This document shows, piece by piece, positions 1 through 24,873 of a stretch of 24,873 nt of DNA (positions are counted from its first letter, which is position 1; every line of letters begins with the position of its first letter). The stretch comes from a virus. Below the pieces are notes generated by a model, which did not search any database, had not been told where the DNA came from, and saw nothing but the letters and a program-made list of their open reading frames with translations. A program made the position numbers and the translations under genes. The stretch is taken from UHGV virus genome UHGV-0240820; one strand, written 5' to 3'.

Positions 1-1
1 A

Positions 2-157
2 CCAAGCATCCCCAACACTCAGGTCGGCGTATATGGCGACTGGTTTAATGATGGCAAGCCCACTTGGGATGACGGTGGTGGCGAAGACCTGTATCTCAAG
101 GAGGTAACCCACTGGATGCCGCTGCCAGAACCGCCGCAGGAGGTTAACCGTGGCTAA
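2..157 (+). CDS. hypothetical protein, 3' end only (5' part lies upstream of the window)
   Basis: Frame 2 is open for 51 codons from the window edge to TAA at 155-157; the end overlaps the GTG start of the next gene by 8 nt, suggesting coupling. No recognisable motif. Confidence 0.3.
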   Translation, partial: PSIPNTQVGVYGDWFNDGKPTWDDGGGEDLYLKEVTHWMPLPEPPQEVNRG

Positions 158-431
158 CCTGCAACTTGCCGTTAAAGGTGAATACTTCGATGCCATGATT
201 CGCGGAGAGAAAACGGAAGAGTATCGCCTGTGTAATGACTACTGGAATAAGCGAATTATGTTCCGCGAGTATGACCGCCTGATTATCACAAAGGGATATC
301 CGAAGCGCGACGATTCCAGCCGCAGAATTGACGTCCCGTATGACGGATATGAAATCAAGACAATCACACATCCGCACTTCGGCGATAAGCCGGCAAAGGT
401 GTTCGCGATAAAGGTGAATATTGATGGCTAA
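150..431 (+). CDS. ASCH-domain-like small protein (93 aa)
   Basis: GTG start at 150 preceded by AGGAGG (138-143). Contains a G-x-K-x-x-E-x-R motif (RGEKTEEYR) characteristic of ASCH/PUA-like domains. Domain call is from memory of the motif. Confidence 0.5.
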   Translation: MANLQLAVKGEYFDAMIRGEKTEEYRLCNDYWNKRIMFREYDRLIITKGYPKRDDSSRRIDVPYDGYEIKTITHPHFGDKPAKVFAIKVNIDG

Positions 432-726
432 ATCAGCAGCAGAGCGCAAAGCCGCTCAGAGAGCCAGACAAGCTGCATCTGGTGTGCGTAAGCTGGAAAT
501 TGTGCTTGATGCTCAGGAAATTGAAATGCTGGAGCGTAACTGTGCCACGCGTCGCCCCGGGCGTGCGCCTTACGAATTTGGTGAGTATATAGCGTTACTG
601 ATCCGCCAGGATGATGCACGCGTGCACGGGCGTATAAAATCGATCAGCAGAAACGTTGCGGTAAGTGCGGCGAGAGAGTTCCCGTTAATTCATGCCCGTG
701 TAATGGTGACTCGGAATGCTGGGTGA
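424..726 (+). CDS. hypothetical small protein; 3' part probably frameshifted (see findings)
   Basis: ATG at 424 with AAGGTGA (411-417) at 6 nt spacing. N-terminal 70 aa look protein-like; the C-terminal 30 aa in this frame do not, while the -1 frame encodes a Cys-rich ribbon-like tail ending at TGA 759-761. Confidence 0.4.
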   Translation: MAKSAAERKAAQRARQAASGVRKLEIVLDAQEIEMLERNCATRRPGRAPYEFGEYIALLIRQDDARVHGRIKSISRNVAVSAAREFPLIHARVMVTRNAG

Positions 727-756
727 CTAAAGGCTGGCATGAAACGAAATTAATAG

Positions 757-770
757 CGTGACATGTCACG
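757..770. repeat. 14-bp perfect palindrome CGTGACATGTCACG
   Basis: Read directly from sequence; the 12-bp core GTGACATGTCAC recurs at 3023-3034. Confidence 0.6.
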
Positions 771-810
771 AGTAGATTATGCATGATGAATTTGATGGGT
801 TTTGAATACT

Positions 811-837
811 GCCGCCAACTATGGCGGCTTTATTTTG
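811..837 (+). terminator. intrinsic terminator-like hairpin upstream of the terminase genes
   Basis: GCCGCCA (811-817), loop ACTA, TGGCGGC (822-828), followed by TTTATTTTG. Confidence 0.55.
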
Positions 838-842
838 CATGG

Positions 843-862
843 TACTATTACCACAACGGTAA
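843..862 (+). promoter_or_regulatory. -10-like TACTAT abutting dyad TTACCACAACGGTAA (848-862); candidate late promoter/operator
   Basis: Same hexamer-plus-dyad arrangement as at 21184-21203 on the minus strand. Lies 18 bp upstream of the terminase small subunit start. No good -35 element. Confidence 0.4.
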
Positions 863-879
863 CTATTACCACGGTGGTT

Positions 880-1476
880 ATGATGCCTGCTGAACCTAAA
901 ACCTATAAACGCAAATCAACGCAATTTAAGCCACTAACAGCAATGCAGGAGGCTTATTGCCAGTCATACATCAAAACGCCTGAAAACCAGACTCAGGCAG
1001 CGATTAACGCAGGATTCTCCCCAAATACAGCGGCAGTTAAAGCCAGTCTCATGATGCGCGATGAACGCATTCAAAAACGGATTGCCGAGCTGATGGAAGA
1101 GCGCAACAAACGAATGCGCGTCAGTGCTGATTACGTTCTCATGCGCCTGGTGGAGATCGACCAGATGGACGTGATCGACATCCTCAACGACGATGGGAGC
1201 CTTAAGCCAATCCGCGAGTGGCCGAAAATCTGGCGCACTACGCTTAGTGGCTTTGATCTGTCATCGACCATCATGAACATGAACGAGGATTCGATAGAGA
1301 CAATCCTCAAAAAAATTAAATGGCCTGACAAGGTGAAGAACCTCGAACTGATTGGTAAGCACGTCGACGTCAACGCATTCAAAGAACGCCTGGATGTTAA
1401 TGTGAATGTGACAATTGCTGATCGCATAGCGGCAGCCAGGAAGAGACTGAAAGAACGTCAGGATGGCAATCAGTGA
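880..1476 (+). CDS. terminase small subunit
   Basis: Position immediately upstream of, and overlapping (GTGA), the large subunit. Sequence resembles small-terminase families (from memory). Start placed at ATG 880 (or 883, GGTGG at 873-877); the ORF-track start at 802 is rejected because it spans the terminator and the direct repeat. Confidence 0.7.
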   Translation: MMPAEPKTYKRKSTQFKPLTAMQEAYCQSYIKTPENQTQAAINAGFSPNTAAVKASLMMRDERIQKRIAELMEERNKRMRVSADYVLMRLVEIDQMDVIDILNDDGSLKPIREWPKIWRTTLSGFDLSSTIMNMNEDSIETILKKIKWPDKVKNLELIGKHVDVNAFKERLDVNVNVTIADRIAAARKRLKERQDGNQ

Positions 1477-2948
1477 CAGATACAGCGTTATCTCCTGAAG
1501 AGCAGTTAATCGAGGATATTGCAGGGTTCACTCACGATCCGCTTGGCTATGCCCTCTATGCGTTCCCATGGGGGGAAGAGGGGACTGAACTGGCACATGC
1601 CACCGGCCCACGTCAGTGGCAGGCTGATGCGTTCCGAGAGATACGTGATCACCTGCAGAATCCAGAGACGCGCTATCAGCCGCTTATGCTGGCACGCGCT
1701 TCTGGTCACGGTATTGGTAAATCCGCATTCATCTCAATGCTGATCAACTGGGGCATGTCCACTTGCGAGGATTGTAAGGTCGTGGTGACCGCCAACACCG
1801 ACAACCAGCTACGAACGAAGACCTGGCCGGAAATTATCAAGTGGTCGAACCTTGCTATCACGAAAGACTGGTTTACCTGTACCGCTACCGCGATGTACAG
1901 CAATGACCTAGGGCACGACAAGCGGTGGCGGGCTGACGCAATACCCTGGTCTGAGCACAACACCGAGGCATTCGCCGGACTACACAACGAGCGCAAACGC
2001 ATCATCGTGGTGTTTGATGAAGCGTCGAACATTGCGGATCTGGTGTGGGAAGTTGCCGAGGGTGCGCTTACGGACGAAGACACTGAGATTATTTGGGTGG
2101 CGTTCGGAAACCCTACACGTAACACCGGGCGTTTTCGCGAATGTTTCCGCAAATATAAACACCGCTGGAAAACTGCGCAGATTGACAGCCGGACGGTGGA
2201 AGGCACCAACAAACAGCAGTTGCAGAAATGGGTTGATGACTACGGGGAAGATAGCGACTTCGTTAAAATCCGTGTGCGTGGCATATTCCCTGATGCATCT
2301 GAATTGCAGTTTATCCCTACCGGTCTTACTGACGAGGCAATGAAACGGGTGGTAACCGCTGCGCAGGTTGCACATGCTCCGGTGATAATCGGTGTTGACC
2401 CGGCATATTCAGGCGTTGATGACGCGGTGATATACCTGCGGCAGGGGCTACACAGTAAGGTGCTGTGGACTGGCAACAAGACTACCGACGATCTGATTAT
2501 GGCGAAGCGTATCGCTGACTTTGAAGACCAGTATCAGGCTGACGCGGTGTTCATCGACTTCGGTTACGGAACCGGTTTGAAGTCAATCGGTGACGGCTGG
2601 GGTCGTACATGGCAACTTGTTCCGTTCGGTGGCGCGTCTACTGACCCGCAGATGCTCAACAAGCGTGGGGAGATGTTCAACTCATGCAAGACATGGCTGA
2701 GGCTCGGCGGCATGCTGGATGACCAGGAAACAGCGGACGACCTGTCGACGGCAGAGTACAAAGTTCGCGTGGACGGTAAAATCGTTATCGAACCGAAGGA
2801 AGATATCAAGGAGCGGCTTGGGCGTTCTCCTGGTAAAGGCGATGCGCTACTGCTGACGTTTGCGTTCCCTGTGTCGAAGCGTCTGCGAATTCCCGGGCAG
2901 CAGAACCAGCAAGGCAAGGCCATCACAGATTACGATCCATATGCTTAA
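1473..2948 (+). CDS. terminase large subunit (ATPase + nuclease)
   Basis: 491 aa. Walker A-like GHGIGKS, Walker B-like VVFDEAS, and an RNaseH-like nuclease region (IGVDPAYSG...DDAV). GTG start overlaps the upstream stop. Confidence 0.9.
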   Translation: MTDTALSPEEQLIEDIAGFTHDPLGYALYAFPWGEEGTELAHATGPRQWQADAFREIRDHLQNPETRYQPLMLARASGHGIGKSAFISMLINWGMSTCEDCKVVVTANTDNQLRTKTWPEIIKWSNLAITKDWFTCTATAMYSNDLGHDKRWRADAIPWSEHNTEAFAGLHNERKRIIVVFDEASNIADLVWEVAEGALTDEDTEIIWVAFGNPTRNTGRFRECFRKYKHRWKTAQIDSRTVEGTNKQQLQKWVDDYGEDSDFVKIRVRGIFPDASELQFIPTGLTDEAMKRVVTAAQVAHAPVIIGVDPAYSGVDDAVIYLRQGLHSKVLWTGNKTTDDLIMAKRIADFEDQYQADAVFIDFGYGTGLKSIGDGWGRTWQLVPFGGASTDPQMLNKRGEMFNSCKTWLRLGGMLDDQETADDLSTAEYKVRVDGKIVIEPKEDIKERLGRSPGKGDALLLTFAFPVSKRLRIPGQQNQQGKAITDYDPYA

Positions 2949-2998
2949 TCCGCTGGTGGGGATAATGTCGTTGATATCCTCTGATGAGGATAAAACAA

Positions 2999-3025
2999 AG
3001 CCAGCTCATCGGCTGGCTGTTTGTG
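2999..3025 (+). terminator. weak terminator-like hairpin after the terminase large subunit
   Basis: AGCCAGC (2999-3005), loop TCATCG, GCTGGCT (3012-3018), then GTTTGTG. The T tract is poor. Confidence 0.35.
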
Positions 3026-3034: not shown

Positions 3035-3038
3035 GGCG

Positions 3039-3461
3039 TTAGAAGGTTATTTTATCGAATGCGGCGTTGATTGCCTTGGCGTCCTGCTCAGCACCAACCA
3101 CATCAAGTAAAGATCTTTTACTAAGCACTTCAGCCAGGCATTGTAACTTCATGTTGTATAAGTTTTCGCGCATGTAATCATCATCACTTTTTTCTTTGGC
3201 GTATACAGCGCGAGAAATATCAAACACATTGCCTTTTTCCATTTCAGTTTTCTGCGCTGAAATCCAGTCATGGCAAGTAACTCCTATTCCATGGTCATCG
3301 CTAAGCGTTAACCCGGCAAGTCGCTCACCTGGAATTGCTTCACAAAGCATTTCATTTCCTGCAAAAACACCATAAAAAATTGAATCATCACCCTGAACAA
3401 TGCGTACATATTTGCACGGCCATTCATTTAGATATTTAGCTAGCATGTCGGCTGTTTTCAT
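3039..3461 (-). CDS. hypothetical protein (140 aa), reverse-oriented moron
   Basis: Clean ORF with AAGGTGA 4 nt upstream of the ATG on the minus strand. Convergent with the terminase genes. No recognisable motif. Confidence 0.55.
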   Translation of the reverse strand: MKTADMLAKYLNEWPCKYVRIVQGDDSIFYGVFAGNEMLCEAIPGERLAGLTLSDDHGIGVTCHDWISAQKTEMEKGNVFDISRAVYAKEKSDDDYMRENLYNMKLQCLAEVLSKRSLLDVVGAEQDAKAINAAFDKITF

Positions 3462-3471
3462 GATCTCACCT

Positions 3472-3496
3472 TAAAAAAATGCCCGGCGAACCGGGC
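3472..3496 (-). terminator. intrinsic terminator (minus strand)
   Basis: On the minus strand: GCCCGG, loop TTCG, CCGGGC, followed by a T7 run (plus-strand A-run 3473-3479). Confidence 0.7.
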
Positions 3497-3659
3497 GAAC
3501 TGGAAGCAATGAGTTATGCCTTCCGTGGCTGTACTGGTTTACAGCATGAAGCCATCGCAATGGCGCCCTGCTGTAAAAAGGGCGGTGATAGTCCTTCAAG
3601 GGAAACCATCACCGCCAAGCCCCTGGAACTTCTGGCATCACGGTCCTTAGGCGTGATTC

Positions 3660-3736
3660 TGGCGTGGCATGCAGGATTCGAACCTGCGACCAACCGCTTA
3701 GAAGGCGGTTGCTCTGTCCAACTGAGCTAATGCCAC
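3660..3736 (-). tRNA. tRNA-Arg (anticodon UCU)
   Basis: Minus-strand 77-nt cloverleaf: acceptor GTGGCAT/ATGCCAC, D stem GCTC/GAGC, anticodon stem ACCGC/GCGGT with loop CTTCTAA, T arm GCAGG-TTCGAAT-CCTGC, discriminator G, encoded CCA. Differs from host argU at several positions (from memory), so it is phage-encoded. Confidence 0.85.
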
Positions 3737-4058
3737 AACGCTGAGAGCACTTAGCCTGTTAAGGCGCCACACTTTGTCGCGGCTCCATAAATGCTCTCAT
3801 CGTTGTACCCTCGTCTCTTCCGAGGCGTCACACCGAATCGCCGGGATGGTGAATCCCCGTGCGCGGAATAAAACCGCTCGACTTGCACATTCCGGCTACC
3901 TGGTTCGTTTGCCACAGCCAGGGAGGGTGCCCCTTAAACGCATCCAGACCGCTATCGGCGCATGTGCCATACGCCGTACTGCTCAAAATAAAAGCTCACT
4001 CCACCTGTTCAATTTAACGACAAGCCAGTCAGGTTAGTAACCGGAATGAACTCTTTGG

Positions 4059-4073
4059 TTACCTGAAAGGTAA
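4059..4073. promoter_or_regulatory. dyad TTACCTGAAAGGTAA (operator-like)
   Basis: One of six TTACC-N5-GGTAA sites; intergenic. Confidence 0.45.
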
Positions 4074-4163
4074 TAATTCGCGCATTAAATGTCAACTGTC
4101 TACGATAAATAAATCATATGTGGTTAAATTGGTAATAATTTAATTGCGTACGGAGTCATTGAT

Positions 4164-4370
4164 ATGTGCATGGGTAGCTCACCATCAGTGCCTGCAACAC
4201 CAGAAGTTCAGGCAGCACCACAGGAGCAGGATGCCGCCGTTGTTGATGCCCGCGACGAAGAAACTCGTCGCCGTCGCGCTGCTGCTGGTCGTAGTTCTAC
4301 GCTGCTTACCGGTTCTCAGGGCGACACATCAACTGCTAATACCAGCGGTAAAACGCTGCTTGGTCAGTAA
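4164..4370 (+). CDS. hypothetical small protein (68 aa)
   Basis: ATG preceded by CGGAGTCATTGA, a 12-nt string identical to the portal translation-initiation region at 4372-4383. Low-complexity Ala/Arg-rich product, so coding status is uncertain. Confidence 0.35.
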   Translation: MCMGSSPSVPATPEVQAAPQEQDAAVVDARDEETRRRRAAAGRSSTLLTGSQGDTSTANTSGKTLLGQ

Positions 4371-4384
4371 CCGGAGTCATTGAA

Positions 4385-6064
4385 ATGGCGGAAACAACTA
4401 AAGAGCGATTGAACAAACAGTTCGCACAACTTGAAAGCGAGCGTCAGTCGTTCGAGCCGCACTGGCGCGAGTTGAGTGATTACATCAACCCGCGTGGTTC
4501 CCGCTTTCTGACTTCTGAGGTTAACCGTAACGATCGACGCAATACACGCATTATTGATTCGACCGGGACTATGGCGGCGCGCACTCTCGCCAGCGGCATG
4601 ATGTCAGGCATCACAAGCCCCGCGCGTCCGTGGTTTCGCCTGGCTACGCCAGATCCTGAAATGATGGATTATGGCCCTGTTAAGTTGTGGCTTGAGGCGG
4701 TGCAGAACCGCATGAACGATATGTTCAATAAGTCGAATCTCTATCAGTCGCTGCCGCAGTTATACGGAAGCCTCGGCACATACAGCACTGGTGCAATGGC
4801 AGTGCTGGAGGATGACGAGGACATCATTCGCACAATGCCATTCCCGATAGGCAGTTACTACCTGGCTAACTCACCTCGTGGCAGTGTGGACACCTGTTTT
4901 CGCAAGTTCTCTATGACTGTTCGTCAGCTTGTTCAGGAGTTCGGGCTAAATAACGTCAGCGAATCCGTAAAAAGCATGTGGGAAAGCGGAACCTACGAGA
5001 AGTGGATTGAAGTGATGCATTCGGTTTACCCGAACATTGACCGCGATACATCGAAGCTGGATAGCAAGAACAAGCCATTCAAATCGGTTTATTACGAGGT
5101 TGGTGGCGATAACGACAAGTTGTTGCGTGAGTCCGGATTCGATGAGTTTCCAATTATGGCTCCGCGCTGGGAAGTTAACGGCGAAGATGTTTATGGATCA
5201 TCATGCCCGGGTATGCTGGCGCTTGGACCTGTTAAGGCATTGCAGCTTCTCCAGAAGCGCAAGTCGCAGTTGATTGATAAAGCCACCAATCCGCCGATGG
5301 TTGCTCCGACTTCCCTCAAGAATCAGCGCGCCTCCCTTCTTCCTGGCGACATCACGTATATCGATCAGATTACTGGTCAGGATGGTTTCAGGCCTGCTTA
5401 TCTGGTTAACCCCAGTACAGCAGATTTGGTGGCAGACATTCAGGACACTCGTCAAATCATTAACAGCGCCTACTTTGTCGATCTGTTCATGATGTTGCAG
5501 AACATCAATACCCGCTCGATGCCTGTTGAAGCGGTGATCGAAATGAAAGAAGAAAAACTTCTGATGTTGGGGCCGGTTCTGGAGCGTCTGAACGACGAAT
5601 GTCTTAATCCTCTCATTGACCGCTCTTTCTCGATGATGGTGCGTAAAAACATGCTGCCGCCACCGCCTGACGCGATGGAAGGCATGCCCCTGAAGGTCGA
5701 ATACATTTCCGTCATGGCTCAGGCGCAGAAGTCTATCGGCCTGTCCAGTCTGGCGTCCACGGTTAACTTCATTGGTCAACTTGCGCAAGCGAAACCAGAA
5801 GCTCTCGACAAACTCAACGTTGATCAGGCGATCGATGCATTCGCTGATATGTCCGGAGTGTCTCCAACCGTCATTGTTCCGCAGGAACAGGTTGAGCAGG
5901 CTCGCCAGCAACGGGCACAGCAACAACAGCAGCAACAAATGATGGCGATGGGGATGGCGGCGGCACAGGGTGCCAAGACGCTAAGCGAAGCTAAAACTTC
6001 GGATCCGAGTGTTTTGTCAGCTATGGCGAATGCAGTTAGTGGTCAGGGTGGGCAATCACAATGA
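4385..6064 (+). CDS. portal protein (podovirus type)
   Basis: 559 aa, located after the terminase genes. Gln/Met/Ala-rich C-terminal tail (QQRAQQQQQQQMMAMGMAAAQGA) resembles the T7 gp8 C-terminus as I recall it. Confidence 0.85.
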   Translation: MAETTKERLNKQFAQLESERQSFEPHWRELSDYINPRGSRFLTSEVNRNDRRNTRIIDSTGTMAARTLASGMMSGITSPARPWFRLATPDPEMMDYGPVKLWLEAVQNRMNDMFNKSNLYQSLPQLYGSLGTYSTGAMAVLEDDEDIIRTMPFPIGSYYLANSPRGSVDTCFRKFSMTVRQLVQEFGLNNVSESVKSMWESGTYEKWIEVMHSVYPNIDRDTSKLDSKNKPFKSVYYEVGGDNDKLLRESGFDEFPIMAPRWEVNGEDVYGSSCPGMLALGPVKALQLLQKRKSQLIDKATNPPMVAPTSLKNQRASLLPGDITYIDQITGQDGFRPAYLVNPSTADLVADIQDTRQIINSAYFVDLFMMLQNINTRSMPVEAVIEMKEEKLLMLGPVLERLNDECLNPLIDRSFSMMVRKNMLPPPPDAMEGMPLKVEYISVMAQAQKSIGLSSLASTVNFIGQLAQAKPEALDKLNVDQAIDAFADMSGVSPTVIVPQEQVEQARQQRAQQQQQQQMMAMGMAAAQGAKTLSEAKTSDPSVLSAMANAVSGQGGQSQ

Positions 6065-6357
6065 CAGATTACGAAGACGATCAACTGAAAGAAGAAAACG
6101 CCCGTAAGCAACGTGACATGGCACAGCGTGAAATTGATGACATTTGCTTTGTCATGAGCAGTGAACAGGGGCGTCGCGTTGTCTGGTCGGTGCTGGAGAA
6201 AGGCCGTGTGTTTTCCGCTATCTCACCGATGGACGCTATGGCAATGGCATTTAATGAGGGGCAACGCAATCTGGCGCTGGAACTGTTTCAGCGCGTTATG
6301 GCGCATTGCCCTGAACAGTATTTGAAGATGGCCAAAGAGGCCAGTGAACAGGAGTGA
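6061..6357 (+). CDS. hypothetical protein (98 aa) between portal and scaffold
   Basis: ATGA overlap with the portal stop; acidic, helical-looking. Confidence 0.55.
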   Translation: MTDYEDDQLKEENARKQRDMAQREIDDICFVMSSEQGRRVVWSVLEKGRVFSAISPMDAMAMAFNEGQRNLALELFQRVMAHCPEQYLKMAKEASEQE

Positions 6358-6359
6358 TC

Positions 6360-7055
6360 ATGAATTTATTTGAGCGTTTGCTGTATCGCCGTCTTTGCAA
6401 TGAGCAACCAGTCGATGGTGGAGCAGCTCCGGCTGCGTCAGAACCGTCAGCGCCTACAGGTGATAACCCTGCTCCAGTTGGTGATCCATCACAACAGGAA
6501 GGTGATAAGCCACAACCTGTTGCTGATGTCGATAAACCTGATGATGAAAAAAAATCTGAAAACGATAAGCAGGGTGAAAAAAAGGACGGCGATAAACCAG
6601 AGGGTGCGCCTGAAAAGTACGAGTTTCAGGCTGCCGAAGGCGTAGAGCTGGATACAGAAGCGTTGAAGGAATTCGAGCCGGTGGCGCGAGAACTAAACCT
6701 GACCAACGAGCAAGCGCAAAAGCTGGTTGATGCTTATCCGAAGATTCTGGCAGGTGTTCAGCAGCGCCAGGCAGAAGCCTGGCAGAAAACAACCGAGCAG
6801 TGGGCAGCGGATGTAAAAGCCGACAAAGAAATCGGTGGCGACAAGTTGATTTCTAACCTTAGCGCCGCACAGCGTGCGCTTGACCAGTTCGGGACACCTG
6901 AACTCAAAGAATATCTGAACACCACCGGGCTGGGTAATCACCCTGATCTGGTCAAAACGTTCGTGAAAATCGGAAAGGCGATGTCTGAAGATGGCATGGT
7001 CACCGGTGGTAATGAAGGCCAGCGTAGTGCGGCCGAAGTGCTCTATGGCAAATAA
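6360..7055 (+). CDS. scaffolding protein
   Basis: Highly acidic, Pro/Asp/Glu/Lys-rich N-terminal half and helical C-terminal half, immediately upstream of the capsid gene. Start placed at ATG 6360 (GGAG 6351-6354), not the GTG at 6354. Confidence 0.65.
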   Translation: MNLFERLLYRRLCNEQPVDGGAAPAASEPSAPTGDNPAPVGDPSQQEGDKPQPVADVDKPDDEKKSENDKQGEKKDGDKPEGAPEKYEFQAAEGVELDTEALKEFEPVARELNLTNEQAQKLVDAYPKILAGVQQRQAEAWQKTTEQWAADVKADKEIGGDKLISNLSAAQRALDQFGTPELKEYLNTTGLGNHPDLVKTFVKIGKAMSEDGMVTGGNEGQRSAAEVLYGK

Positions 7056-7069
7056 GAGAGGAAATGACA

Positions 7070-8545: not shown

Positions 8546-8555
8546 GGTGATATCG

Positions 8556-18800: not shown

Positions 18801-19190
18801 TCAATGGTCTATATGATGAAACAGAAGTTAAGCGGTCGCGATATTGACTACAGCTGGAATAACCTTGTGAAAGAGGGGATCGACCGGGGCGGAATGCTTG
18901 GCTGGCTCTCTGAGCCGCTGAATACCGTTGAGAACATAAGCGGTGGTAGGTTTGGTCTTGGCGCGATGTTTGGTGCGCCTCCGGTATCAAGGTTTCAGAG
19001 TCGTAATGCTATTGGTGCTTTACTTGGTCCTACCTTTGATCTTGGCGGTGATGCCGCGACGGTTGCGAATGGTGTACTTAACGGAGAATTTGACAGCCAG
19101 CAAACCCACGCGGTCCGTAAAATGCTACCTTTTCAGAACCTGTGGGCGATATCACCATTACTAAATAAAGTTGAAGAGCAGATGAAATAG
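15801..19190 (+). CDS. internal virion (core/ejection) protein D-like (gp16 position)
   Basis: 1129 aa, coupled (TAATG). Gly/Ala-rich segment near residues 120-200 resembles a T7 gp16 segment as recalled; no N-terminal transglycosylase motif seen. Confidence 0.55.
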   Translation: MPIYEQDPKELLGEDIQQIAAPDDSNFYMETPSLLSAVNPFTSDQRVQRSRQAAFRIDNTLGSFIASAPFSQFDRVEGYNPFDNDAADIKGYEDFADSFINSGSPEETMAIKHRIDQQRADMEYNSGLGFAGTVSSVAMRLADPFNAISMFIPFGAVVRGGRIAETAGRFALANAAGSVASEAALQATQEARSAMESVSNVVVDALVGGILGAGAQLLAGPGAREAVVNSVGNHLRGMDSPQSIGAAQVFNTTLDQEQLAGLGLANKTLSVTPAGRLAQSPSLVSRQINQQLAENNYFFAKNDEGLATFTAVETKIKQYDAMLYKQMEATRDAYQQYSKSVSARGVKRMNFIDFNEAVGMAMRRGDQSDIPEVSQAAARIRPIFETTKARMQELGILPKDIDVVTAKSYLPRIYKFDKILSDRTEFRGRIANWIQGISAKGADKAGQRIERINSLLKTAEESAPRADALASEIAEAEKWSGKKILLMEELDKRNKLISQETDTQARLTRIEKELAETSSEKLQARMMKESSDLKTRLDDIAQAKSELPVYQRHMELLDNPRKYRSELRRLQKRANSTTRLNASRERALKQMEPLSREEAEDAADEIVNKIIGAPSGLVPADIIPERLVGRAGFTKSRTLLIPDERIEDFLESDVNYIMESYLRQVAPEIELTAQFGRKDMGEQIRQVSEEYTRLIKEAKTPKRRAVLEKQRAADIRDITAMRDRLLGTYGAPQDPRSFFVRAGRVARNINFLRLLGGMTVSAATDLMRPMMQHGLRKSLGPMVSMLKNMDSVKIATRDLREMAVGLDYVLSTRTKAIADLTDPYSRRSAAERGLNWMTQKFGNWTLMNQWNSALKSWSGMIVQSRILDAARQVSAGGTLSKSEMRKMAQVGINEDVLRRIGEQFGKHGEDMDGLLTGHSHLWDDRFAREIFQSAVLKDVDSVIVTPGVGDTPLFFSKEGWKMITQFKTFIFAQHNRVLVSGIQQGDAAFYLGALGTIALGSMVYMMKQKLSGRDIDYSWNNLVKEGIDRGGMLGWLSEPLNTVENISGGRFGLGAMFGAPPVSRFQSRNAIGALLGPTFDLGGDAATVANGVLNGEFDSQQTHAVRKMLPFQNLWAISPLLNKVEEQMK

Positions 19191-19191
19191 G

Positions 19192-20043
19192 ATGAAAAAA
19201 ATAAATTTGTTTTTTGGCATAGTGCTTTCAATAGTCTCTGTAAATCCTACAGCTGCCAGTTCATTGCAATGCAATAAGGATAACTTTGATGCATGCAAAA
19301 CGTGTGAACAATTATCAAAGGCTATCGACTTAAAAGAACCTAATCGTGGCGATTACTATAGAGGGGCTTTATGGAATGGGCTTTACGCCTCTTATGTAAT
19401 TAATTGCCCTGTGGTTGCTGAGAAGTTACTGAGCCATGGTGCTATACCATCATATGGCGGATATATGGGGTCTATGGGGGCGGTTCTGACAGGAAAATGG
19501 CCTCATAACAATGAATCAATAAATCTTTCATGGGCAGATTTGCTTATAAAACATGGATTTGATGTTAATAGGCATACGGGGAATTATAAATCAGCTACTG
19601 AAGTATGGGCTATAGATAAAAAACAGATTGAATATAAGTCAGTTTTTGACAAGTTAATTCAATCCAGCGAAGTAAAACCACTCGATCCTTCAAGAAATTT
19701 AGAATGGTGTGCGTCTGAAGGGTATCGCTCAGTTGTCGTTTATTCCCTTAACTCATGTATAGAAAATGCTATAAAACGTTTGGATGATGGTGTTTCTTCA
19801 GCGTCTGATATTTCATCAGCAGCCGTAAATTCCTGTACTAGCGATGTAGAAAATTTCAATAAGCATTTGGCATGCAAAGCAGCTGTTAAAGAAAACTCTG
19901 ATAAAGAGAGAAGCGACGTTTACCAGTTATTAACCAGTGATAGTCAAATGAATAAAAATGTTATTGATATGCTGAAGGAAAGAAATATTGAAACGGTTCT
20001 TGAATTTAGAGCTGAAAATCGATCAGCGAAAACTGCACAGTGA
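19192..20043 (+). CDS. secreted protein of unknown function (283 aa, AT-rich moron)
   Basis: N-terminal signal peptide (MKKINLFFGIVLSIVSVNPTAAS), about 10 Cys, AT-rich codon usage unlike the structural genes. Start is 1 nt after the gp16-like stop. Confidence 0.6.
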   Translation: MKKINLFFGIVLSIVSVNPTAASSLQCNKDNFDACKTCEQLSKAIDLKEPNRGDYYRGALWNGLYASYVINCPVVAEKLLSHGAIPSYGGYMGSMGAVLTGKWPHNNESINLSWADLLIKHGFDVNRHTGNYKSATEVWAIDKKQIEYKSVFDKLIQSSEVKPLDPSRNLEWCASEGYRSVVVYSLNSCIENAIKRLDDGVSSASDISSAAVNSCTSDVENFNKHLACKAAVKENSDKERSDVYQLLTSDSQMNKNVIDMLKERNIETVLEFRAENRSAKTAQ

Positions 20044-20049
20044 TCAAAC

Positions 20050-20074
20050 AGGCCGCTTTCGCGGCCTTGTTTTT
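20050..20074 (+). terminator. intrinsic terminator
   Basis: AGGCCGC, loop TTTC, GCGGCCT, followed by TGTTTTT. Confidence 0.75.
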
Positions 20075-20234
20075 AACGAATGCCACCGCCGCCCGGGCGG
20101 GAATCCGCAGAACGCCCACCGCAGCGGGAGCCGTCAGCAGCAGTGTCGCTGTCGTGCTGACAACGACCGGCAAAGGCCTGAGTTGAAGCTACCAGAGACA
20201 ACAAAACGAACAGTGCAGCAAATGCTTTTTTCAT
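20073..20234 (-). CDS. small exported peptide candidate (53 aa)
   Basis: Internal Met of ORF 20073-20306 starts a classic signal peptide (MKKAFAALFVLLSLVASTQAFAG) followed by a 30-aa Gly/Arg/Asp-rich tail with 2 Cys. GC-rich, in contrast to its flanks. Confidence 0.35.
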   Translation of the reverse strand: MKKAFAALFVLLSLVASTQAFAGRCQHDSDTAADGSRCGGRSADSRPGGGGIR

Positions 20235-20315
20235 TGTGAAATTTCCATCTATAAGCCACCTCAATGTGGCGTCAATGAGTGTAGCACTGACTTTTGTTTC
20301 GTCCATAAAAAACTA

Positions 20316-20828
20316 CTATGCAGGCTTTTTGGATTTGTACGAATAATCCCACGGATAAACATTTCTACTAAGTGGAGCTGTATTCGTTCGTTCATGAAAT
20401 AATTTTGTGAAATTCAATACGGAATCCATCCAAACTTTTGCGTTAGCTTTGGTGTGTGCGGGCGGGTCCCAATAAGCTAGTAAGGCTGCATCTCTTATTT
20501 CATTGACTGCATATATGAGATATGCGTTACTGGTTGGTTTTGGCCTGTAATTTCCTTGTTCATCAATCAATCCATATGACCACTCATCCCAACACTGTTC
20601 AGTACATGAGTATGAATATGATGCATATTCACCAATATTGACATGAACCTTTCTGAGATGGAAGCCTAATACTTCGTCTGGTCTTTCAAAAAGAGTATCT
20701 TTTCCCAGATCAGGATGATGACCATGACGCCAGTGTTGTTTAAAAGCATCTTTTAGCGAAATCAGAAAGTCATCAGTTTTAAACTCACCAGTAGGTATAA
20801 CCTTCCCGCTATACTCACTCAAAAACAT
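20316..20828 (-). CDS. hypothetical protein (170 aa); candidate toxin/effector of a two-gene module
   Basis: Strong RBS (AGAGGA at 5 nt spacing). His cluster (HWRHGHH) and a Cys/Trp-rich segment (YSCTEQCWDEW). Start overlaps the upstream gene's 3' end by 14 nt. AT-rich. Confidence 0.55.
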   Translation of the reverse strand: MFLSEYSGKVIPTGEFKTDDFLISLKDAFKQHWRHGHHPDLGKDTLFERPDEVLGFHLRKVHVNIGEYASYSYSCTEQCWDEWSYGLIDEQGNYRPKPTSNAYLIYAVNEIRDAALLAYWDPPAHTKANAKVWMDSVLNFTKLFHERTNTAPLSRNVYPWDYSYKSKKPA

Positions 20829-21141
20829 CGAATTCCTCTTCCTTCATATGCGTTTCTAATGAGTTAAGCTGGCGGAAAGATATCTCTTTTGATTCTGCAG
20901 ATGAGAGCTTTTTTATCCGCTTGATATTCTTTGTGATAGGAATAGACATTGTATGCACATCAGCGGATGCTCTTGGCTTTGTGCTGATAAAAATATGGCG
21001 CAATGCCGCATTTTCACTATTGAACGAGCCAATAGCTGATTTACGTGCTACAACCTTACCAGTAAAAATACGACTCTTGCTACGCTTTGCATGAGTTCCG
21101 CTTCTTACCGGACCTCTCATCACGAATCCAAGTTTTGTCAT
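20815..21141 (-). CDS. hypothetical basic protein (108 aa); candidate partner (antitoxin/regulator?)
   Basis: GGAG RBS. Arg/Lys-rich N-terminal half and acidic C-terminus (HMKEEEFDVFE). First gene of the overlapping pair. Confidence 0.5.
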   Translation of the reverse strand: MTKLGFVMRGPVRSGTHAKRSKSRIFTGKVVARKSAIGSFNSENAALRHIFISTKPRASADVHTMSIPITKNIKRIKKLSSAESKEISFRQLNSLETHMKEEEFDVFE

Positions 21142-21183
21142 CTTTAATCTCCGGTAAGTTACAGGTATAAAATAAAAACAGGT

Positions 21184-21226
21184 TTACCTTTAAGGTAATA
21201 GTACGCTATTCACCCCCGGTCTGCAA
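21184..21226 (-). promoter_or_regulatory. candidate sigma70 promoter with overlapping operator dyad
   Basis: Minus strand: -35 TTGCAG (21221-21226), 17-bp spacer, -10 TACTAT (21198-21203), overlapping dyad TTACCTTTAAGGTAA (21184-21198) by 1 bp. Confidence 0.45.
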
Positions 21227-21270
21227 TCTGTACAGAATTATTTAAAGGCACATCCCTGTGCCGCCGCCCG

Positions 21271-21927
21271 TCAGAAGAACCCTGCTTTGTCGTTGATGTA
21301 CTCCGCGTGCGTCTGGATATCACGCAGGCATTTGCTCACACCGACGATGTAGCAGAACATGGTGGTCAGTTCCGCCGCCGCGCCCGATACGTCGTGCCCG
21401 TCTTCCTGTAACTGGTTCAGCAGATTCATCAGCAGTGAGTTCTCCGTCAGGCCGAGAACACCAGACGGAGAATGAATCAGGCTGCGGTAGCCGGGCTTCA
21501 GCGGGGCACTGTATTCTTTTTTGTCTTCCAGCTTGATCGCCTCCATAATGGCGGGCATGAAGCCTGACAAGACCTTCTCCACTTTTGTTTCTTGTTGTCT
21601 TAAACGTTTCTCGCATTCAATGAAGTAGCGTCGCACCTGGCGACCTTTTTCGTTACGCTCGACCATCGCCAGCTCTTTGGCTGTATCAAGGGTGAGGTGG
21701 TACTCTTTGCGGTTGTGGCCGCCTCTACCAGATGTTTGCTTTCCCAAATTGGAAAGCAAAATATAGTCTTGATTTTCAATGAATTCGTATTCTGATATGC
21801 GATTTGTAATCCATGCTGCAAACACCTTTTTAACACCTAAAAAAGCGTGCAGATCGCGGGCATTACAAAGTAGGGCTGTTTCGTTAGATATAGTGCCGTT
21901 GAATACGGGGATGAGTTGAGCGTTCAT
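21271..21927 (-). CDS. phage antirepressor (AntA/Bro-N-type N-terminal domain plus C-terminal domain)
   Basis: N-terminal sequence ([12 protein letters not shown]...[32 protein letters not shown]) matches the conserved AntA-type antirepressor domain as I recall it. GGAG RBS. C-terminal 80 aa are paralogous to ORF 23077-23334. Confidence 0.75.
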
Positions 21928-22085
21928 GATGGCGTCTCCACTTAGCGAATTACATCACCACCGCTGAGACCAATCAGATGGTGGTGAACTGAACGGAGTT
22001 GGTCTTACCGGCCTAAGTGGTACCGGCGTCCTTTCGGACCCCCATTCAGCCCACCATAATTCTGGCATGACTGTGCTATACGCAT

Positions 22086-22108
22086 AAAAAAACCACGTCT
22101 GGCGTGGT
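22086..22108 (-). terminator. intrinsic terminator-like element (minus strand)
   Basis: On the minus strand: stem ACCACG/CGTGGT (22092-22097 / 22103-22108) followed by a T7 run (plus-strand A-run 22086-22092). Confidence 0.5.
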
Positions 22109-22200
22109 ATGCGCCACTTAGTAATCCGGGAGACCAATCCCGGCACTGGATTTTGCCAGTGCCCGATTACTATGGCACAAGAGGAGTGCGATGTAAATTT
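22086..22200 (-). ncRNA. structured non-coding leader or sRNA candidate
   Basis: No ATG on the minus strand across 22086-22200. Hairpins at 22126-22143 (6 bp) and 22142-22163 (8 bp) share two nucleotides. Ends in a terminator-like hairpin. Confidence 0.3.
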
Positions 22201-22213
22201 ACCGCAAAGGTAA
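22199..22213. promoter_or_regulatory. dyad TTACCGCAAAGGTAA (operator-like)
   Basis: On the minus strand a -10-like TATCAT overlaps the dyad by 1 bp, with TTGATT 17 bp upstream as a candidate -35. Confidence 0.45.
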
Positions 22214-22291
22214 TGATAAGCGCGAATAAATATCAAAATCAACCGTATTTGGTTGATGGAGTTTAATGCTTGATCACCTGAAAGCAAGATA

Positions 22292-22306
22292 TTACCTTTA
22301 AGGTAA
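22292..22306. promoter_or_regulatory. dyad TTACCTTTAAGGTAA (operator-like)
   Basis: Identical to the 21184 site; 21 bp upstream of the ATG of the 242-aa gene; preceded on the plus strand by AGATAT. Confidence 0.45.
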
Positions 22307-22326
22307 TGTTATTGTGAGGAAAAGCA

Positions 22327-23055
22327 ATGGAAGTTTTCTGGATAGTTGTTGGTGTGGTTGCGGTGATTATTTACGTTATCAACCAGAACAAGACTAAGAT
22401 CTCTGATCGTACGGTCGTTAATCATAACAAAACGATAAAGACCGAAGATGGGGAGATAACGATTAATCGTACACAGGTGATAGAACACACCTCTACTCAG
22501 TTTCAAAAAACTGGAGGTAATGCGCCTAATATTTCCGCACCTCCTGCTTATGATAGTGCGGTAATCCAGACATATTATAAACAGCAGGAGTTAGCAAAAG
22601 AGAGGCAACTGATTCAGCCAAAGCCATTTACAGCAGAGCTTCCACATGGAGTGTCAACGCGTCCGGCATATCATGGAAGATTCCCTGGTGATGACACATC
22701 GTCTCAGTCACCTAAAAAAGCACCTCAGGCAGTATCAGAGCCAGCAAGAATACCTTCTGTATCGCCGTCAAAAGAAGAATCAGCTAACGAAGTTTCAAGT
22801 GCCCGCAAGCAGTGTTTGCGATGCAGAATAACCCTTCCATATGAAAAATTCAGGAAATCGTCAAAAAATCCAGATGGATTGACTAAGTGGTGTGCAAGGT
22901 GTCTCGATGGCCCAAAGAATACACGCCATATGAAGTGGTGCCCAATTTGTAATGTCCGCAGAAAACGAACCAGTTTTTACCCTAATAATCAAAATGCGGA
23001 TGGCTTAATGGCATGGTGCAAAACGTGCTGGGACGAGCACAAAGCGAAACGATAG
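22327..23055 (+). CDS. membrane-anchored protein with C-terminal tandem zinc-ribbon-like repeats (242 aa)
   Basis: N-terminal TM helix (FWIVVGVVAVIIYVI), Pro/Ser/Gln-rich linker, then two repeats of C-x2-C ... DGL ... WC-x2-C. GAGGA RBS. AT-rich. Followed by a terminator. Confidence 0.6.
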   Translation: MEVFWIVVGVVAVIIYVINQNKTKISDRTVVNHNKTIKTEDGEITINRTQVIEHTSTQFQKTGGNAPNISAPPAYDSAVIQTYYKQQELAKERQLIQPKPFTAELPHGVSTRPAYHGRFPGDDTSSQSPKKAPQAVSEPARIPSVSPSKEESANEVSSARKQCLRCRITLPYEKFRKSSKNPDGLTKWCARCLDGPKNTRHMKWCPICNVRRKRTSFYPNNQNADGLMAWCKTCWDEHKAKR

Positions 23056-23079
23056 GCCGCTCTTGCGGCCTTTTCTTTA
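23054..23079 (+). terminator. intrinsic terminator
   Basis: AGGCCGC, loop TCTT, GCGGCCT, followed by TTTCTTTAT; nearly identical to the terminator at 20050-20074. Confidence 0.7.
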
Positions 23080-23334
23080 TCTGGTTTGCTTTCGTAATTG
23101 TTCGGCACAATAGTCGAGATGTGTTTGCAGATCCTGCATAGACATCTGTGAGCTGGTGACGTAGTTAATCAGTGCAGTCAGTTCGGCAAGTGGGCCATCG
23201 ACATTAAATCCATCCTTATCGAGATCCCGGAGTAATTTCATCAAGTGCGATCCCTCCACCAGTGACCTGACGCCTCCCGGCGTGTGAATCCTTTCGGTAA
23301 ATCCGTCTTCCAGTGGATAGTGATACTGCTGCAT
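23077..23334 (-). CDS. stand-alone antirepressor C-terminal-domain paralog (85 aa)
   Basis: About 50% identical by eye to the C-terminal 80 aa of the antirepressor at 21271-21927. Start placed at the internal ATG 23334 (GGAGAAG RBS); the longer ORF to 23457 lacks an RBS and spans the operator dyad. Confidence 0.5.
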   Translation of the reverse strand: MQQYHYPLEDGFTERIHTPGGVRSLVEGSHLMKLLRDLDKDGFNVDGPLAELTALINYVTSSQMSMQDLQTHLDYCAEQLRKQTR

Positions 23335-23410
23335 CTTATCTTCTCCATGCAATAACTGTATGTTTATACAGTAACAAATAATTTGTTTGCTATCCAGCAC
23401 GTTTTGCAAA

Positions 23411-23425
23411 TTACCCGAAAGGTAA
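23411..23425. promoter_or_regulatory. dyad TTACCCGAAAGGTAA (operator-like)
   Basis: Lies between the divergent antirepressor-paralog and tail-spike starts. Confidence 0.45.
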
Positions 23426-23529
23426 TATCTATTGGTATTTATAGTCTTTTTATCCATATATGGTTTTTCAGGTAATAGAATAACCAGATATGCGGCGCAA
23501 CGGGTGCTGCGACTATCTGGAGATTTAAC

Positions 23530-24786
23530 ATGACGGTCTCAACCGAAGTTGACCACAACGAATACACCGGTAACGGCGTTACGACATCGTTTCCGTATAC
23601 TTTTCGAATTTTCAGAAAATCAGACCTGGTTGTTCAGGTGTCTGATCTGAACGGAAACGTAACAGAATTGGTCCTGGATACCGGTTATACGGTAACTGGG
23701 GCGGGCACTTATAGTGGCGGTTCTGTGGTTCTTCCGTCTCCGCTTGCTACTGGATGGCGAATTACGATAGATCGTGTGCTTGATGTAGTGCAGGACACAG
23801 ACCTTCGCAATCAGGGAAAATTTTTCCCCGAAGTGCATGAAGATGCCTTTGACTACCTGACGATGCTGATCCAGCAATGTTTTGGGTGGTTCAGACGTGC
23901 ATTGATGAAACCATCTTTGCTTGCAAAATATTACGATGCAAAGCAAAACAAAATTTCTAACCTTGCAGATCCATCATTTGAGCAGGACGCTGTAAATAAT
24001 CGCTCAATGCGTAATTATGTCGATGCTGCAATCGCCGGAGTTGTTGGTGGTTTTGGTTGGTTTATTCAGTATGGTTCTGGGGCTGTGTACCGAACGTTCC
24101 AGGATAAAATGCGTGATGCTATTAGCCCCAAAGATTTTGGAGCTGTTGGTGATGGTATAAATGACGATTCCACTGCAATAAGCGCGTGCCTTGAAGCCTC
24201 ATCTCCAGGTTATAAAATTGACGGATTAGGGCTTACTTTTAAAGTATCAACTCTTCCGGATGTCAGTCGATTTAAAAATGCTCGTTTTTTATTTGAGAGA
24301 ATACCGGGCCAGCCTCTTTTTTATGCTTCTGAAGATTTTATCCAGGGAGAGTTATTTAAAATTACAGATACACCGTGGTACAACGCCTGGACGCAGGATA
24401 AAACGTTTGTATATGACAATGTCATCTATGCGCCTTTTATGGCTGGAGACCGCCATGGTGTAAATAACCTCCATGTTGCATGGGTTCGCTCAGGAGATGA
24501 CGGGAAGACCTGGACAACGCCGGAATGGCTTACAGATTTACATGAAAACTATCCCACAGTTAACTATCACTGCATGAGTATGGGGGTTGTCAGAAATCGC
24601 CTTTTTGCTGTAATTGAGACGCGGACCGTGAGAGGAAATAAACTGCAGGTTGCAGAGTTGTGGGATCGCCCAATGAGTCGCAGCCTTCGCGTTTATGGTG
24701 GTATAACGAAAGCAGCAAATCAGCAAGTCGCTTATATTCGCATTACTGATCACGGATTGAACCGCCCCGGGAATCCTGGAGACTAA
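23530..24786 (+). CDS. tail spike/fiber protein, 3'-disrupted by IS insertion
   Basis: GGAG RBS. N-terminal ~140 aa resemble the T7 gp17 particle-binding domain (from memory). DFGAVGDGINDD motif and an Asp-box SGDDGKTW (24491-24514). From ~24758 the reading frame runs into IS terminal sequence; the last ~9 codons and the stop are IS-derived. Confidence 0.7.
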   Translation: MTVSTEVDHNEYTGNGVTTSFPYTFRIFRKSDLVVQVSDLNGNVTELVLDTGYTVTGAGTYSGGSVVLPSPLATGWRITIDRVLDVVQDTDLRNQGKFFPEVHEDAFDYLTMLIQQCFGWFRRALMKPSLLAKYYDAKQNKISNLADPSFEQDAVNNRSMRNYVDAAIAGVVGGFGWFIQYGSGAVYRTFQDKMRDAISPKDFGAVGDGINDDSTAISACLEASSPGYKIDGLGLTFKVSTLPDVSRFKNARFLFERIPGQPLFYASEDFIQGELFKITDTPWYNAWTQDKTFVYDNVIYAPFMAGDRHGVNNLHVAWVRSGDDGKTWTTPEWLTDLHENYPTVNYHCMSMGVVRNRLFAVIETRTVRGNKLQVAELWDRPMSRSLRVYGGITKAANQQVAYIRITDHGLNRPGNPGD

Positions 24787-24873
24787 ACTTCCTGAGAAAG
24801 AGGTAAACAGGATGACTAAAAATACTCGTTTTTCCCCTGAAGTCCGTCAACGGGCAGTCCGTATGGTTCTGGA
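24758..24873 (+). mobile_element. IS3-family insertion sequence, left end (IS629-like), continues beyond the window
   Basis: Terminal sequence TGAACCGCCCCGGGAATCCTGGAGACTAAACTTCC followed by an OrfA start; identified from memory, not by search. Confidence 0.65.
24812..24873 (+). CDS. IS3-family transposase OrfA, N-terminal fragment (truncated by window)
   Basis: MTKNTRFSPEVRQRAVRMVL matches the N-terminus of IS629/IS1203-type OrfA as I recall it. AAGAGG RBS upstream. Confidence 0.7.
   Translation, partial: MTKNTRFSPEVRQRAVRMVL

Follow-up and report, generated by a model that had tools for sequence, protein, structure and literature searches.

The stretch of DNA analysed here (UHGV virus genome UHGV-0240820, 24,873 nucleotides, called the window in the following) is very probably the late, virion-encoding region of a temperate podovirus of the epsilon15/phiV10 type (genus Uetakevirus) integrated in Escherichia coli. 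Its virion genes form a module of the T7 supergroup, and a slot for accessory genes, or morons, lies within the late gene cluster. An earlier note, made from the sequence alone, had described a virion gene order mirroring that of T7 in a temperate context, with an accessory island at the junction of the gp16- and gp17-like genes that might be a permissive insertion hotspot. We confirmed the observation and our analysis supports its interpretation. Neither is new: this is a known kind of phage, the epsilon15-like phages, and a common prophage family of E. coli.

We compared the window with phage records by megablast and searched complete E. coli genomes separately. The epsilon15-like Escherichia phages EC.W1-9, TL-2011b, phiv142-3 and phiV10 showed 97-98% DNA identity over 50-82% of the window; Enterobacter phage Tyrion (about 81%) and Salmonella phage epsilon15 (77%) were less similar. 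According to their records, phiV10, epsilon15 and Tyrion belong to the genus Uetakevirus. Besides high DNA identity, the window has its gene order in common with epsilon15 and phiV10; from the terminase small subunit (TerS) gene to the tailspike gene the order is that of phiV10, epsilon15, TL-2011b and EC.W1-9, and the capsid protein is of the epsilon15 gp7 type (PF20911, E=3e-149). In BLASTP comparisons with phiV10, the portal, scaffold-position, capsid, cement, gp9-like, adaptor, nozzle and gp13-like proteins were 96-100% identical. The K1 strains IHE3034 and APEC O18 are among at least 111 complete E. coli genomes that contain at least 80% of the window in one place.

Strain N10 carries a near-identical whole prophage. 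It encodes a tyrosine integrase, Bet/exonuclease, a helix-turn-helix (HTH) repressor with a divergent small gene and replication genes, further TerS and the terminase large subunit (TerL), the virion genes with a 1039-amino-acid (aa) endosialidase tailspike, and a lysis cassette with holins, a GH19 endolysin and a spanin. The whole-prophage annotation proposed in the earlier note thus bears out the temperate context. The N10 prophage adjoins yfgI, which fits the published finding that ZX5, phiV10 and epsilon15 have their bacterial attachment site (attB) at the 3' end of guaA (PMC9782041). From the DNA identity and the whole prophage of N10 we therefore read the window as the late half of a temperate podovirus prophage. 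In the relative ZX5, overexpression of the repressor blocks lytic growth, and overexpression of the antirepressor encoded in the island promotes it (PMC9782041).

For the virion genes, the list of open reading frames (ORFs) was scanned with Pfam and PHROG. All named virion genes lie on the plus strand, in the order TerS, TerL, a minus-strand insert, gp3-like gene, portal, Bbp19-like gene, scaffold-position gene, capsid, cement, gp9-like gene, adaptor, nozzle, four internal protein genes, the island and the tailspike. The order portal, scaffold, capsid, tubular A, tubular B, gp13-16-like and gp17-like spike described before is therein. The genes and the insertion sequence (IS) at the right end are:

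802/883-1476, plus strand: terminase small subunit TerS (PF03592, E=1e-29; phrog_51)
1473-2948, plus strand: terminase large subunit TerL (phrog_2, E=8e-53; annotated as terminase in phiV10, N10 and epsilon15)
4164-4370, plus strand: small protein like epsilon15 gp3 (phrog_831; phiV10p06)
4385-6064, plus strand: portal protein of the T7 gp8 family (PF12236, E=3e-187; phrog_332 and phrog_449)
6061-6357, plus strand: Bbp19-like small protein (PF25181, E=7e-17)
6354-7055, plus strand: 233-aa protein in the scaffold position (phrog_458, 'protease')
7064-8056, plus strand: major capsid protein of the epsilon15 gp7 family (PF20911)
8108-8545, plus strand: Bbp16-type capsid cement protein (PF21190, E=4e-47)
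8547-8891, plus strand: epsilon15 gp9-like protein (phrog_590)
8948-9553, plus strand: tail adaptor of 201 aa with the fold of T7 gp11, 'tail tubular protein A' (PDB sequence match 8ck1_E, E=2e-26; AlphaFold2 (AF2) model with a predicted local distance difference test (pLDDT) of 87)
9553-12024, plus strand: tail nozzle of 823 aa with the fold of T7 gp12, 'tail tubular protein B' (8ck1_A, 'Tail Nozzle', E=8.5e-217; AF2 model with pLDDT 87.5)
12024-12488, plus strand: internal virion protein of the T7 gp13 family, 154 aa (phrog_308, E=9e-63)
12488-13054, plus strand: internal core/ejection protein of the T7 gp14 family, 188 aa (PF24072, 31.6 bits, cut-off 27; phrog_418)
13051-15801, plus strand: 916-aa ejection protein in the gp15 slot (phrog_1044), with a lytic transglycosylase domain at about residues 248-400
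15801-19190, plus strand: 1129-aa ejection protein of the T7 gp16 family (phrog_342, E=1e-232, profile positions 192-1227)
23530-24756, plus strand: tailspike with a gp17-like N-terminal attachment domain (about residues 1-166) and a K1-type endosialidase (PF12218, PF12217), truncated at about residue 409
24757-24873, plus strand: left end of an IS of the IS3 family, sharing 99% identity with the beginning of the one annotated in N10; the window ends within this element

Seven of these positions are homologous to T7 by profile or fold, namely gp8, gp11, gp12, gp13, gp14, gp16 and the N-terminus of gp17. T7 gp8 matches phrog_332 and phrog_449, the same two families as the window portal. T7 gp13 belongs to phrog_308 (E=1e-42), as does the 154-aa protein, and T7 gp16 to phrog_342, as does the 1129-aa protein. 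The N-terminus of the tailspike (about residues 1-166) and that of T7 gp17 have PHROGs 1640, 8460, 2710 and 27277 in common, in agreement with the gp17-like spike of the earlier note. Its tail tubular A and B assignments held in Foldseek searches with the AF2 models: the adaptor matched T7 gp11 (7box_M, E=6e-7, TM 0.57-0.60) and also tail tubular protein A of KP32 (5mu4), and the nozzle matched T7 gp12 (7ey9_s, E=5e-25; 7boy_s, E=4e-22; TM about 0.52). For the nozzle model, alignment diversity came from a representative-sequence search; a plain homologue search gave only relatives of at least 81% identity. Sequence profiles of adaptor and nozzle run against PDB sequences reached Carin-1, LME-1 and one other nozzle, and not T7 gp11 or gp12. 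NCBIfam gave no useful match for ten virion proteins. Since the RefSeq record of epsilon15 notes an HHpred match of its gp11 to T7 tail tubular protein A, the relationship to T7 is already on record.

The closest solved structures are the tails of Carin-1 (PDB 8CK1) and LME-1 (PDB 9EFK), with E=1e-16 and 2e-9 for the adaptor and E=5e-86 and 8e-42 for the nozzle, respectively. The nozzle is 44% identical to that of Carin-1. Both are phages of other kinds and hosts, compared on adaptor and nozzle only; a literature search for PDB 8CK1 found no paper.

The window follows T7 in the order of portal, scaffold position, capsid, adaptor, nozzle, internal proteins and fibre or spike, and differs from it in several respects. 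The terminase genes come last in T7, whereas in the window TerS and TerL (802-2948) precede the portal (from 4385), as had been noted before. The Bbp19-like, cement and gp9-like genes are additional. T7 carries its transglycosylase at the N-terminus of gp16, while in the window this domain is part of the protein encoded upstream of the gp16 homologue. Finally, T7 has a fibre and the window a tailspike with an enzyme domain, and the window phage is temperate. No T7, T3 or SP6 promoter consensus was found in the window within 5 mismatches, as expected from the earlier note, and no RNA polymerase gene is listed in the annotation of the N10 prophage. As neither was found, the late genes would be transcribed by the host RNA polymerase.

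The 233-aa protein had been called a scaffold. PHROGs and RefSeq label it a protease, and no protease family was matched in Pfam, NCBIfam or PDB sequences. Its N-terminal third is acidic and proline-rich, and the remainder is of ordinary composition. By position and composition 'scaffold' is plausible and at least as good as the database label, although it is not proven.

The internal proteins set the window apart from the type phages. After the gp13-like protein, identity to phiV10 falls to 57% for the gp14-like protein and to 44%, over the first 500 residues only, for the 916-aa protein. The latter resembles epsilon15 gp15 in about its first 500 residues alone (44%), and the 1129-aa protein has no BLASTP match among the epsilon15 or phiV10 proteins. 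While the ejection trio of epsilon15 and phiV10 consists of phrog_992, 1145 and 684, the window has, from 12488 onward, the 916-aa protein and the 1129-aa protein of phrog_342 instead. We therefore conclude that this lineage carries an alternative, more T7-like ejection cassette. The GC content falls to about 0.46-0.47 across 12488-19190. The transglycosylase domain of the 916-aa protein (residues 248-400) matched the PDB sequences 9vvp_L and 7q47_A, the latter annotated as endolysin. Since only profile positions 192-1227 are covered, the 1129-aa protein is without the N-terminal transglycosylase part of gp16. This type of last ejection protein occurs in 17 of 70 relatives. Among the relatives, the last ejection protein falls into at least four length classes (824, 850, 1004-1007 and 1129 aa). 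RefSeq names the 1129-aa protein 'DUF919 family protein', a label that looks spurious and goes back to a 46-residue match to a baculovirus family (23.4 bits).

A second difference concerns the capsid. In epsilon15 and phiV10 the gp10 capsid staple gene follows gp9. In the window, about 327 bp are lost at this place, between 8937 and 8948, and tblastn with phiV10p13 and epsilon15 gp10 found nothing in the window; the Bbp16-type cement gene is retained. The loss looks like a lineage variant because the near-identical N10 prophage is also without gp10. That is, one sub-lineage may do without the staple. In the particle that we envisage, a T7-type portal, a scaffold-like protein and an HK97-type capsid protein with cement would be joined to a gp11-type adaptor and a gp12-type nozzle. 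Core and ejection proteins of the gp13, gp14 and gp16 families would act together with the transglycosylase-domain protein, and the tailspike would dock through its gp17-like N-terminal domain and carry the K1 endosialidase, which, with its inserted IS, is unlike the tailspikes of epsilon15 and phiV10.

Between the last ejection gene and the tailspike gene lies an island of 4.3 kb, with the following features:

19192-23529, mostly minus strand: the island
19192-20043, plus strand: 283-aa protein with a signal-peptide-like N-terminus, GC content 0.385, present in 14 of 72 relatives
20073-21141, minus strand: cargo genes, namely a YafO-like toxin at 20316-20828, overlapped from upstream by an ORF of 108 aa (20815-21141), and a small ORF encoding a hydrophobic stretch (20073-20306)
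21271-21927, minus strand: antirepressor with an AntA/AntB N-terminal domain (PF08346, E=4e-26; phrog_377)
21938-22175, minus strand: leader of the ant operon with a1/b1 hairpins, C4 and a2/b2 targets (Rfam)
22327-23055, plus strand: 242-aa protein with a hydrophobic N-terminus and a Cys-rich, zinc-finger-like C-terminus (phrog_6762), present in 27 of 72 relatives
23077-23334, minus strand: epsilon15 gp19-like gene, 85 aa (phrog_450 matches residues 42-126 of the listed ORF; compare epsilon15p19 and phiV10p24)

The start of the gp19-like protein is probably Met42 of the listed ORF. Terminator-like hairpins were found after the 283-aa gene (20050-20067) and at the end of the 242-aa gene (23054-23071). 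The N10 copy of the toxin is named YafO family toxin by RefSeq, and the YafO-like pair is present in 9 of 72 relatives.

For a survey of the island, we took 80 IMG/VR loci in which the N-terminus of the tailspike has at least 89% identity to that of the window. The region bounded by the last large ejection gene and the start of the tailspike gene could be measured in 69 of these loci and in the window, phiV10 and N10 (n=72). It ranged from 645 to 5634 bp with a median of about 3.9 kb, and held 45 ORF families in 65 arrangements. The gp19-like gene, which also stands beside the tailspike gene in epsilon15 and phiV10, was present in all 72 islands and was the only universal island gene. The C4 RNA was found in 61, isrK in 65 and the C-terminal domain of the antirepressor in 66 of the 72, while the AntA N-terminal domain of the window occurred in 11. 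Cargo of the relatives included DUF4760, DUF2335 and Arc-like proteins. At the same junction epsilon15 has gp18 and gp19 only (0.7 kb), phiV10 has 1.7 kb and Tyrion three genes, compared with 4.3 kb in the window. This variability answers the question of an insertion hotspot at the gp16/gp17 junction in the affirmative, and the idea has a published precedent in another group of podoviruses, the P22-like phages.

The precedent is the immI region of P22, where sieA, mnt, arc, sar and ant lie between ejection gene 16 and tailspike gene 9, the junction at which the window has its island. The name 'ant moron' was given to this variable region by Villafane et al. for P22-like phages, among them the K1 prophage CUS-3; they also asked whether it is the only insertion site tolerated within the morphogenetic cluster (PMC2629481). 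The island in the window likewise holds variable, non-morphogenetic genes at the ejection-tailspike junction, often with an antirepressor. As in P22-like phages, the antirepressor is accompanied by antisense-RNA and repressor control elements, there is exclusion or other cargo, and variation is wide. However, P22-like phages have a different virion module and use Mnt, Arc and sar, in place of which the window has C4/isrK and the operator of the main repressor; unlike in P22, the ant operon of the window runs opposite to the late operon. Scans with Pfam, PHROG and Rfam detected none of mnt, arc and sar in the window. Four relatives (loci L016, L045, L064 and L076) carry in this slot a 153-aa Arc-like ribbon-helix-helix protein (PF03869, E=1e-14) beside a 203-aa ORF with a hydrophobic stretch, a pair that echoes the Arc/Mnt control of P22 immI. 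A further publication, PMC3573123, deals with a prophage of the P2 type and has no bearing on the window.

We propose that the island is a moron slot that extends from the terminator of the late operon to the operator-bearing control region of the tailspike gene. Its cargo, in the window a putative secreted protein, the YafO-like toxin pair and a zinc-finger-like membrane protein, would be interchangeable. Because of the two terminator-like hairpins and the tailspike's own operator region, we regard the junction as a boundary between transcription units, and this may be the reason why insertions are tolerated here. The tailspike itself may be an exchangeable module, and the conserved flanks (its N-terminal domain, the gp19-like gene and the C-terminal domain of the antirepressor) could guide recombination.

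The antirepressor gene called in the earlier note was confirmed, and it is preceded by an RNA-encoding leader. On the minus strand, Rfam identified isrK (RF01394) at 22086-22162 with 67.7 bits (cut-off 50) and the C4 antisense RNA (RF01695) at 21977-22061 with 61.2 bits (gathering cut-off 45); the model of the C4 a1b1 target (RF03163) scored 39.9 bits, below its cut-off of 46.7. The motif ATTGGTCTC occurs twice on the ant transcript, at 22138-22130 and 21974-21966, and so does CTAAGTGG, at 22121-22114 and 21945-21938. Of the two ATTGGTCTC/CTAAGTGG pairs, the first is situated within the hairpins of isrK and the second in the gap that separates C4 from the start codon of ant; complements of both motifs are located inside C4, at 22005-21999 and 22020-22013. 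The ATG of ant is at 21927 and the last copy of CTAAGTGG ends 10 nt upstream, which places the b2 target beside or over the probable ribosome-binding site. A promoter of the ant operon was predicted with TTGATT as -35 and TATCAT as -10 element; the operator at 22199-22213 abuts or overlaps the latter.

Duplicated a and b targets with their complements in C4 correspond to the layout of immI in P1 and P7, minus the small icd ORF. In the window no ORF resembling icd or orf45 was found between C4 and ant, where the gap measures only about 50 nt. Both P1/P7 immI and the isrK-orf45-anrP region of Gifsy-1, in which isrK lies upstream of the antirepressor gene (PMC4825925), have a leader-encoded RNA ahead of an antirepressor gene, as has the window. 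In contrast to these systems, the antirepressor of the window is of the AntA type and the module stands within the late gene cluster of a podovirus. Pairing of a P1-type C4 antisense RNA beside or over the probable ribosome-binding site would block translation of ant. The listed ORF of 110 aa at 21955-22287 on the minus strand overlies the isrK and C4 RNA genes, has no family match and is almost certainly not a gene.

The operator elements mentioned in the earlier note are matches to a 15-bp palindrome, TTACC-N5-GGTAA. The window contains seven, six of them exact, compared with 0.46 expected. They lie at these places:

846-881, plus strand: two tandem operators (ATTACC-N5-GGTAA; sites 848 and 866, the second with one mismatch), directly upstream of the ATG at 883
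4059-4073, plus strand: operator upstream of the gp3-like gene and the portal operon (palindrome match), the counterpart of epsilon15 2931-2947
21184-21198, plus strand: operator before the toxin operon (palindrome match)
22199-22306, plus strand: divergent control region with two operators, 22199-22213 and 22292-22306 (palindrome matches)
23411-23425, plus strand: operator between the gp19-like and tailspike genes, the counterpart of epsilon15 19895-19911

Four of the operators (21184, 22199, 22292 and 23411) are in intergenic regions of the island. In the RefSeq record of epsilon15, the sites annotated 'repressor, lysogeny' carry exactly ATTACC-N5-GGTAAT, and they stand before TerS (12-27), before the gp3/portal gene and before the tailspike gene, the same three positions of the late region. 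As these annotated sites are identical in sequence and equivalent in place, the operator elements are real and were already known for the type phage. In N10 the palindrome is found on both sides of the repressor gene. We infer from the sequence that ATTACC-N5-GGTAAT is bound by the prophage repressor. Its operator would then precede TerS, the portal operon and the tailspike gene and also stand at each island promoter.

TerS is listed in the window, and annotated in relatives, from a TTG at 802. This start would put the tandem operators and the terminator-like hairpin that precedes them (811-838) inside the gene, and the layout of epsilon15 points to the ATG. Thus, the true start of TerS is probably ATG 883.

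The position of the island and its tailspike raise the question whether the window stems from a P22-like prophage (Lederbergvirus, for example like CUS-3). In P22 the interval from gene 16 to gene 9 is exactly where sieA, mnt, arc, sar and ant are found, the ant moron has been published for P22-like phages including the K1 prophage CUS-3 (PMC2629481), and the window tailspike is an endosialidase. Against this origin, the portal belongs to the T7 gp8 family (PF12236), the adaptor and nozzle have the folds of T7 gp11 and gp12 with only a weak partial match to P22 gp10 (8eap_D, TM 0.30), the capsid protein is in the epsilon15 gp7 family, mnt, arc and sar are absent from the window, and the phages with 97-98% DNA identity are Uetakevirus phages. 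The T7-type portal, adaptor and nozzle together with this DNA identity exclude a P22-like prophage, which we regard as extremely improbable. A short-tailed lambdoid prophage of the Shiga toxin (Stx) type, like 933W, had been suggested for comparison in the earlier note, and many records of Stx-converting phages do match the window, with 74-94% identity in the antirepressor segment. The comparison led nowhere: in a search with the island alone the matches do not extend beyond window 21607-21931, that is, the antirepressor's N-terminal domain, and this domain is all that Stx phages share. All listed records that cover much of the virion module are epsilon15-like phages, and neither synteny from portal to nozzle nor protein similarity to the 933W virion genes was seen. 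With the Stx matches found for the island confined to this domain, an Stx-type prophage is excluded and we attach virtually no probability to it.

The seven T7-family proteins in T7 order could also be taken as a degraded fragment of a lytic, T7-like phage (Autographiviridae) that was never temperate. Members of this family have a single-subunit RNA polymerase with its promoters, and their terminase genes lie downstream of the fibre gene. In the window no T7-class promoter was found, the terminase genes are upstream of the portal, and no RNA polymerase gene appears in the prophage annotation of the relative. This near-identical element is integrated as a prophage and has an integrase and a repressor, and relatives are experimentally temperate (PMC9782041). 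The temperate context excludes a lytic remnant, for which hardly any likelihood is left. As for the island, instead of being made up of phage morons it might be a mobile element in its own right, for example a satellite or phage-inducible chromosomal island (PICI) embedded in the late gene cluster. Satellites are reportedly known to integrate within late genes of prophages, and the lower GC content of the island (0.385-0.45), its own terminator-like hairpins and the mostly opposite orientation of its genes would suit such an element. But Pfam and PHROG revealed no integrase, replication or packaging gene in the island, flanking direct repeats were looked for and not found, and the intergenic control regions carry the phage's own repressor operator. 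In addition, the gp19-like gene and the ant module are kept across relatives whereas cargo genes are swapped singly. An embedded satellite, without integrase and flanking repeats and under the phage's own operators, is very unlikely.

The reading as the late region of a Uetakevirus prophage with a T7-supergroup virion module and a moron slot has several observations against it. Pairwise BLASTP and phmmer comparisons with T7 gp7-gp19 found nothing significant, so that homology to T7 needs profile and fold comparison. For the scaffold-position and capsid proteins, the sequence and PHROG tests that were run gave no connection to the respective T7 proteins. The same is true of the protein in the gp15 slot, which belongs to phrog_1044 while T7 gp15 belongs to phrog_1339; of the gp13-16-like series claimed earlier, gp13 (phrog_308), gp14 (PF24072) and gp16 (phrog_342) stood, and the gp15 slot has no detectable relation to T7. 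Integrase, repressor and attachment (att) sites are outside the window and known only from near-identical prophages. For the YafO-like toxin the Pfam match (PF13957, E=9.5e-4) is below the cut-off, and the defence models of PADLOC gave no match for ten proteins, four from the window island and six representing cargo families of relatives. The ORF families came from a simple ORF caller, and some are spurious, two of them overlying the C4/isrK RNA region; the conclusion of a hotspot is robust to this. Finally, the tailspike ORF ends early because the IS3-family element is inserted at about 24757. With its tailspike gene disrupted in this way, the window copy of the prophage is probably defective and would yield no infectious particles. 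In N10 the 1039-aa tailspike is intact, and the same type of IS interrupts the gene of the 916-aa ejection protein instead.

Between TerL and the portal operon the window has a further accessory insert:

3039-3736, minus strand: accessory insert with a 140-aa ORF (phrog_4846) and a tRNA-Arg(TCT) at 3660-3736

The whole insert region spans 3039-4144 and includes the operator at 4059. phiV10 has different small genes in this place and no annotated tRNA.

In general terms, little is changed by these findings: a common prophage family has been correctly identified. Two details may possibly be undescribed, though we hold this only tentatively. One is the exchange, in one sub-lineage, of the ejection proteins gp16 and gp17 typical of the genus for a T7 gp16-family protein without a transglycosylase of its own, together with the loss of gp10, and the other is an ant moron tied to repressor operators and C4/isrK. 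How modular the interior of a T7-type particle is can be seen from the alternative ejection cassette and the absence of the staple gene. The wiring of operators and C4/isrK provides a testable model of how antirepressor-driven induction is restrained in Uetakevirus. If it holds true, the C4/isrK-gated slot would mean that an immI-like switch arose a second time, independently, at the ejection-tailspike junction known from P22, and the dozens of uncharacterised cargo genes of the slot may act in exclusion or defence. With 45 ORF families in 72 relatives, the slot before the tailspike is a rich and easily located source of cargo genes, and these are candidates for superinfection exclusion and defence screens.

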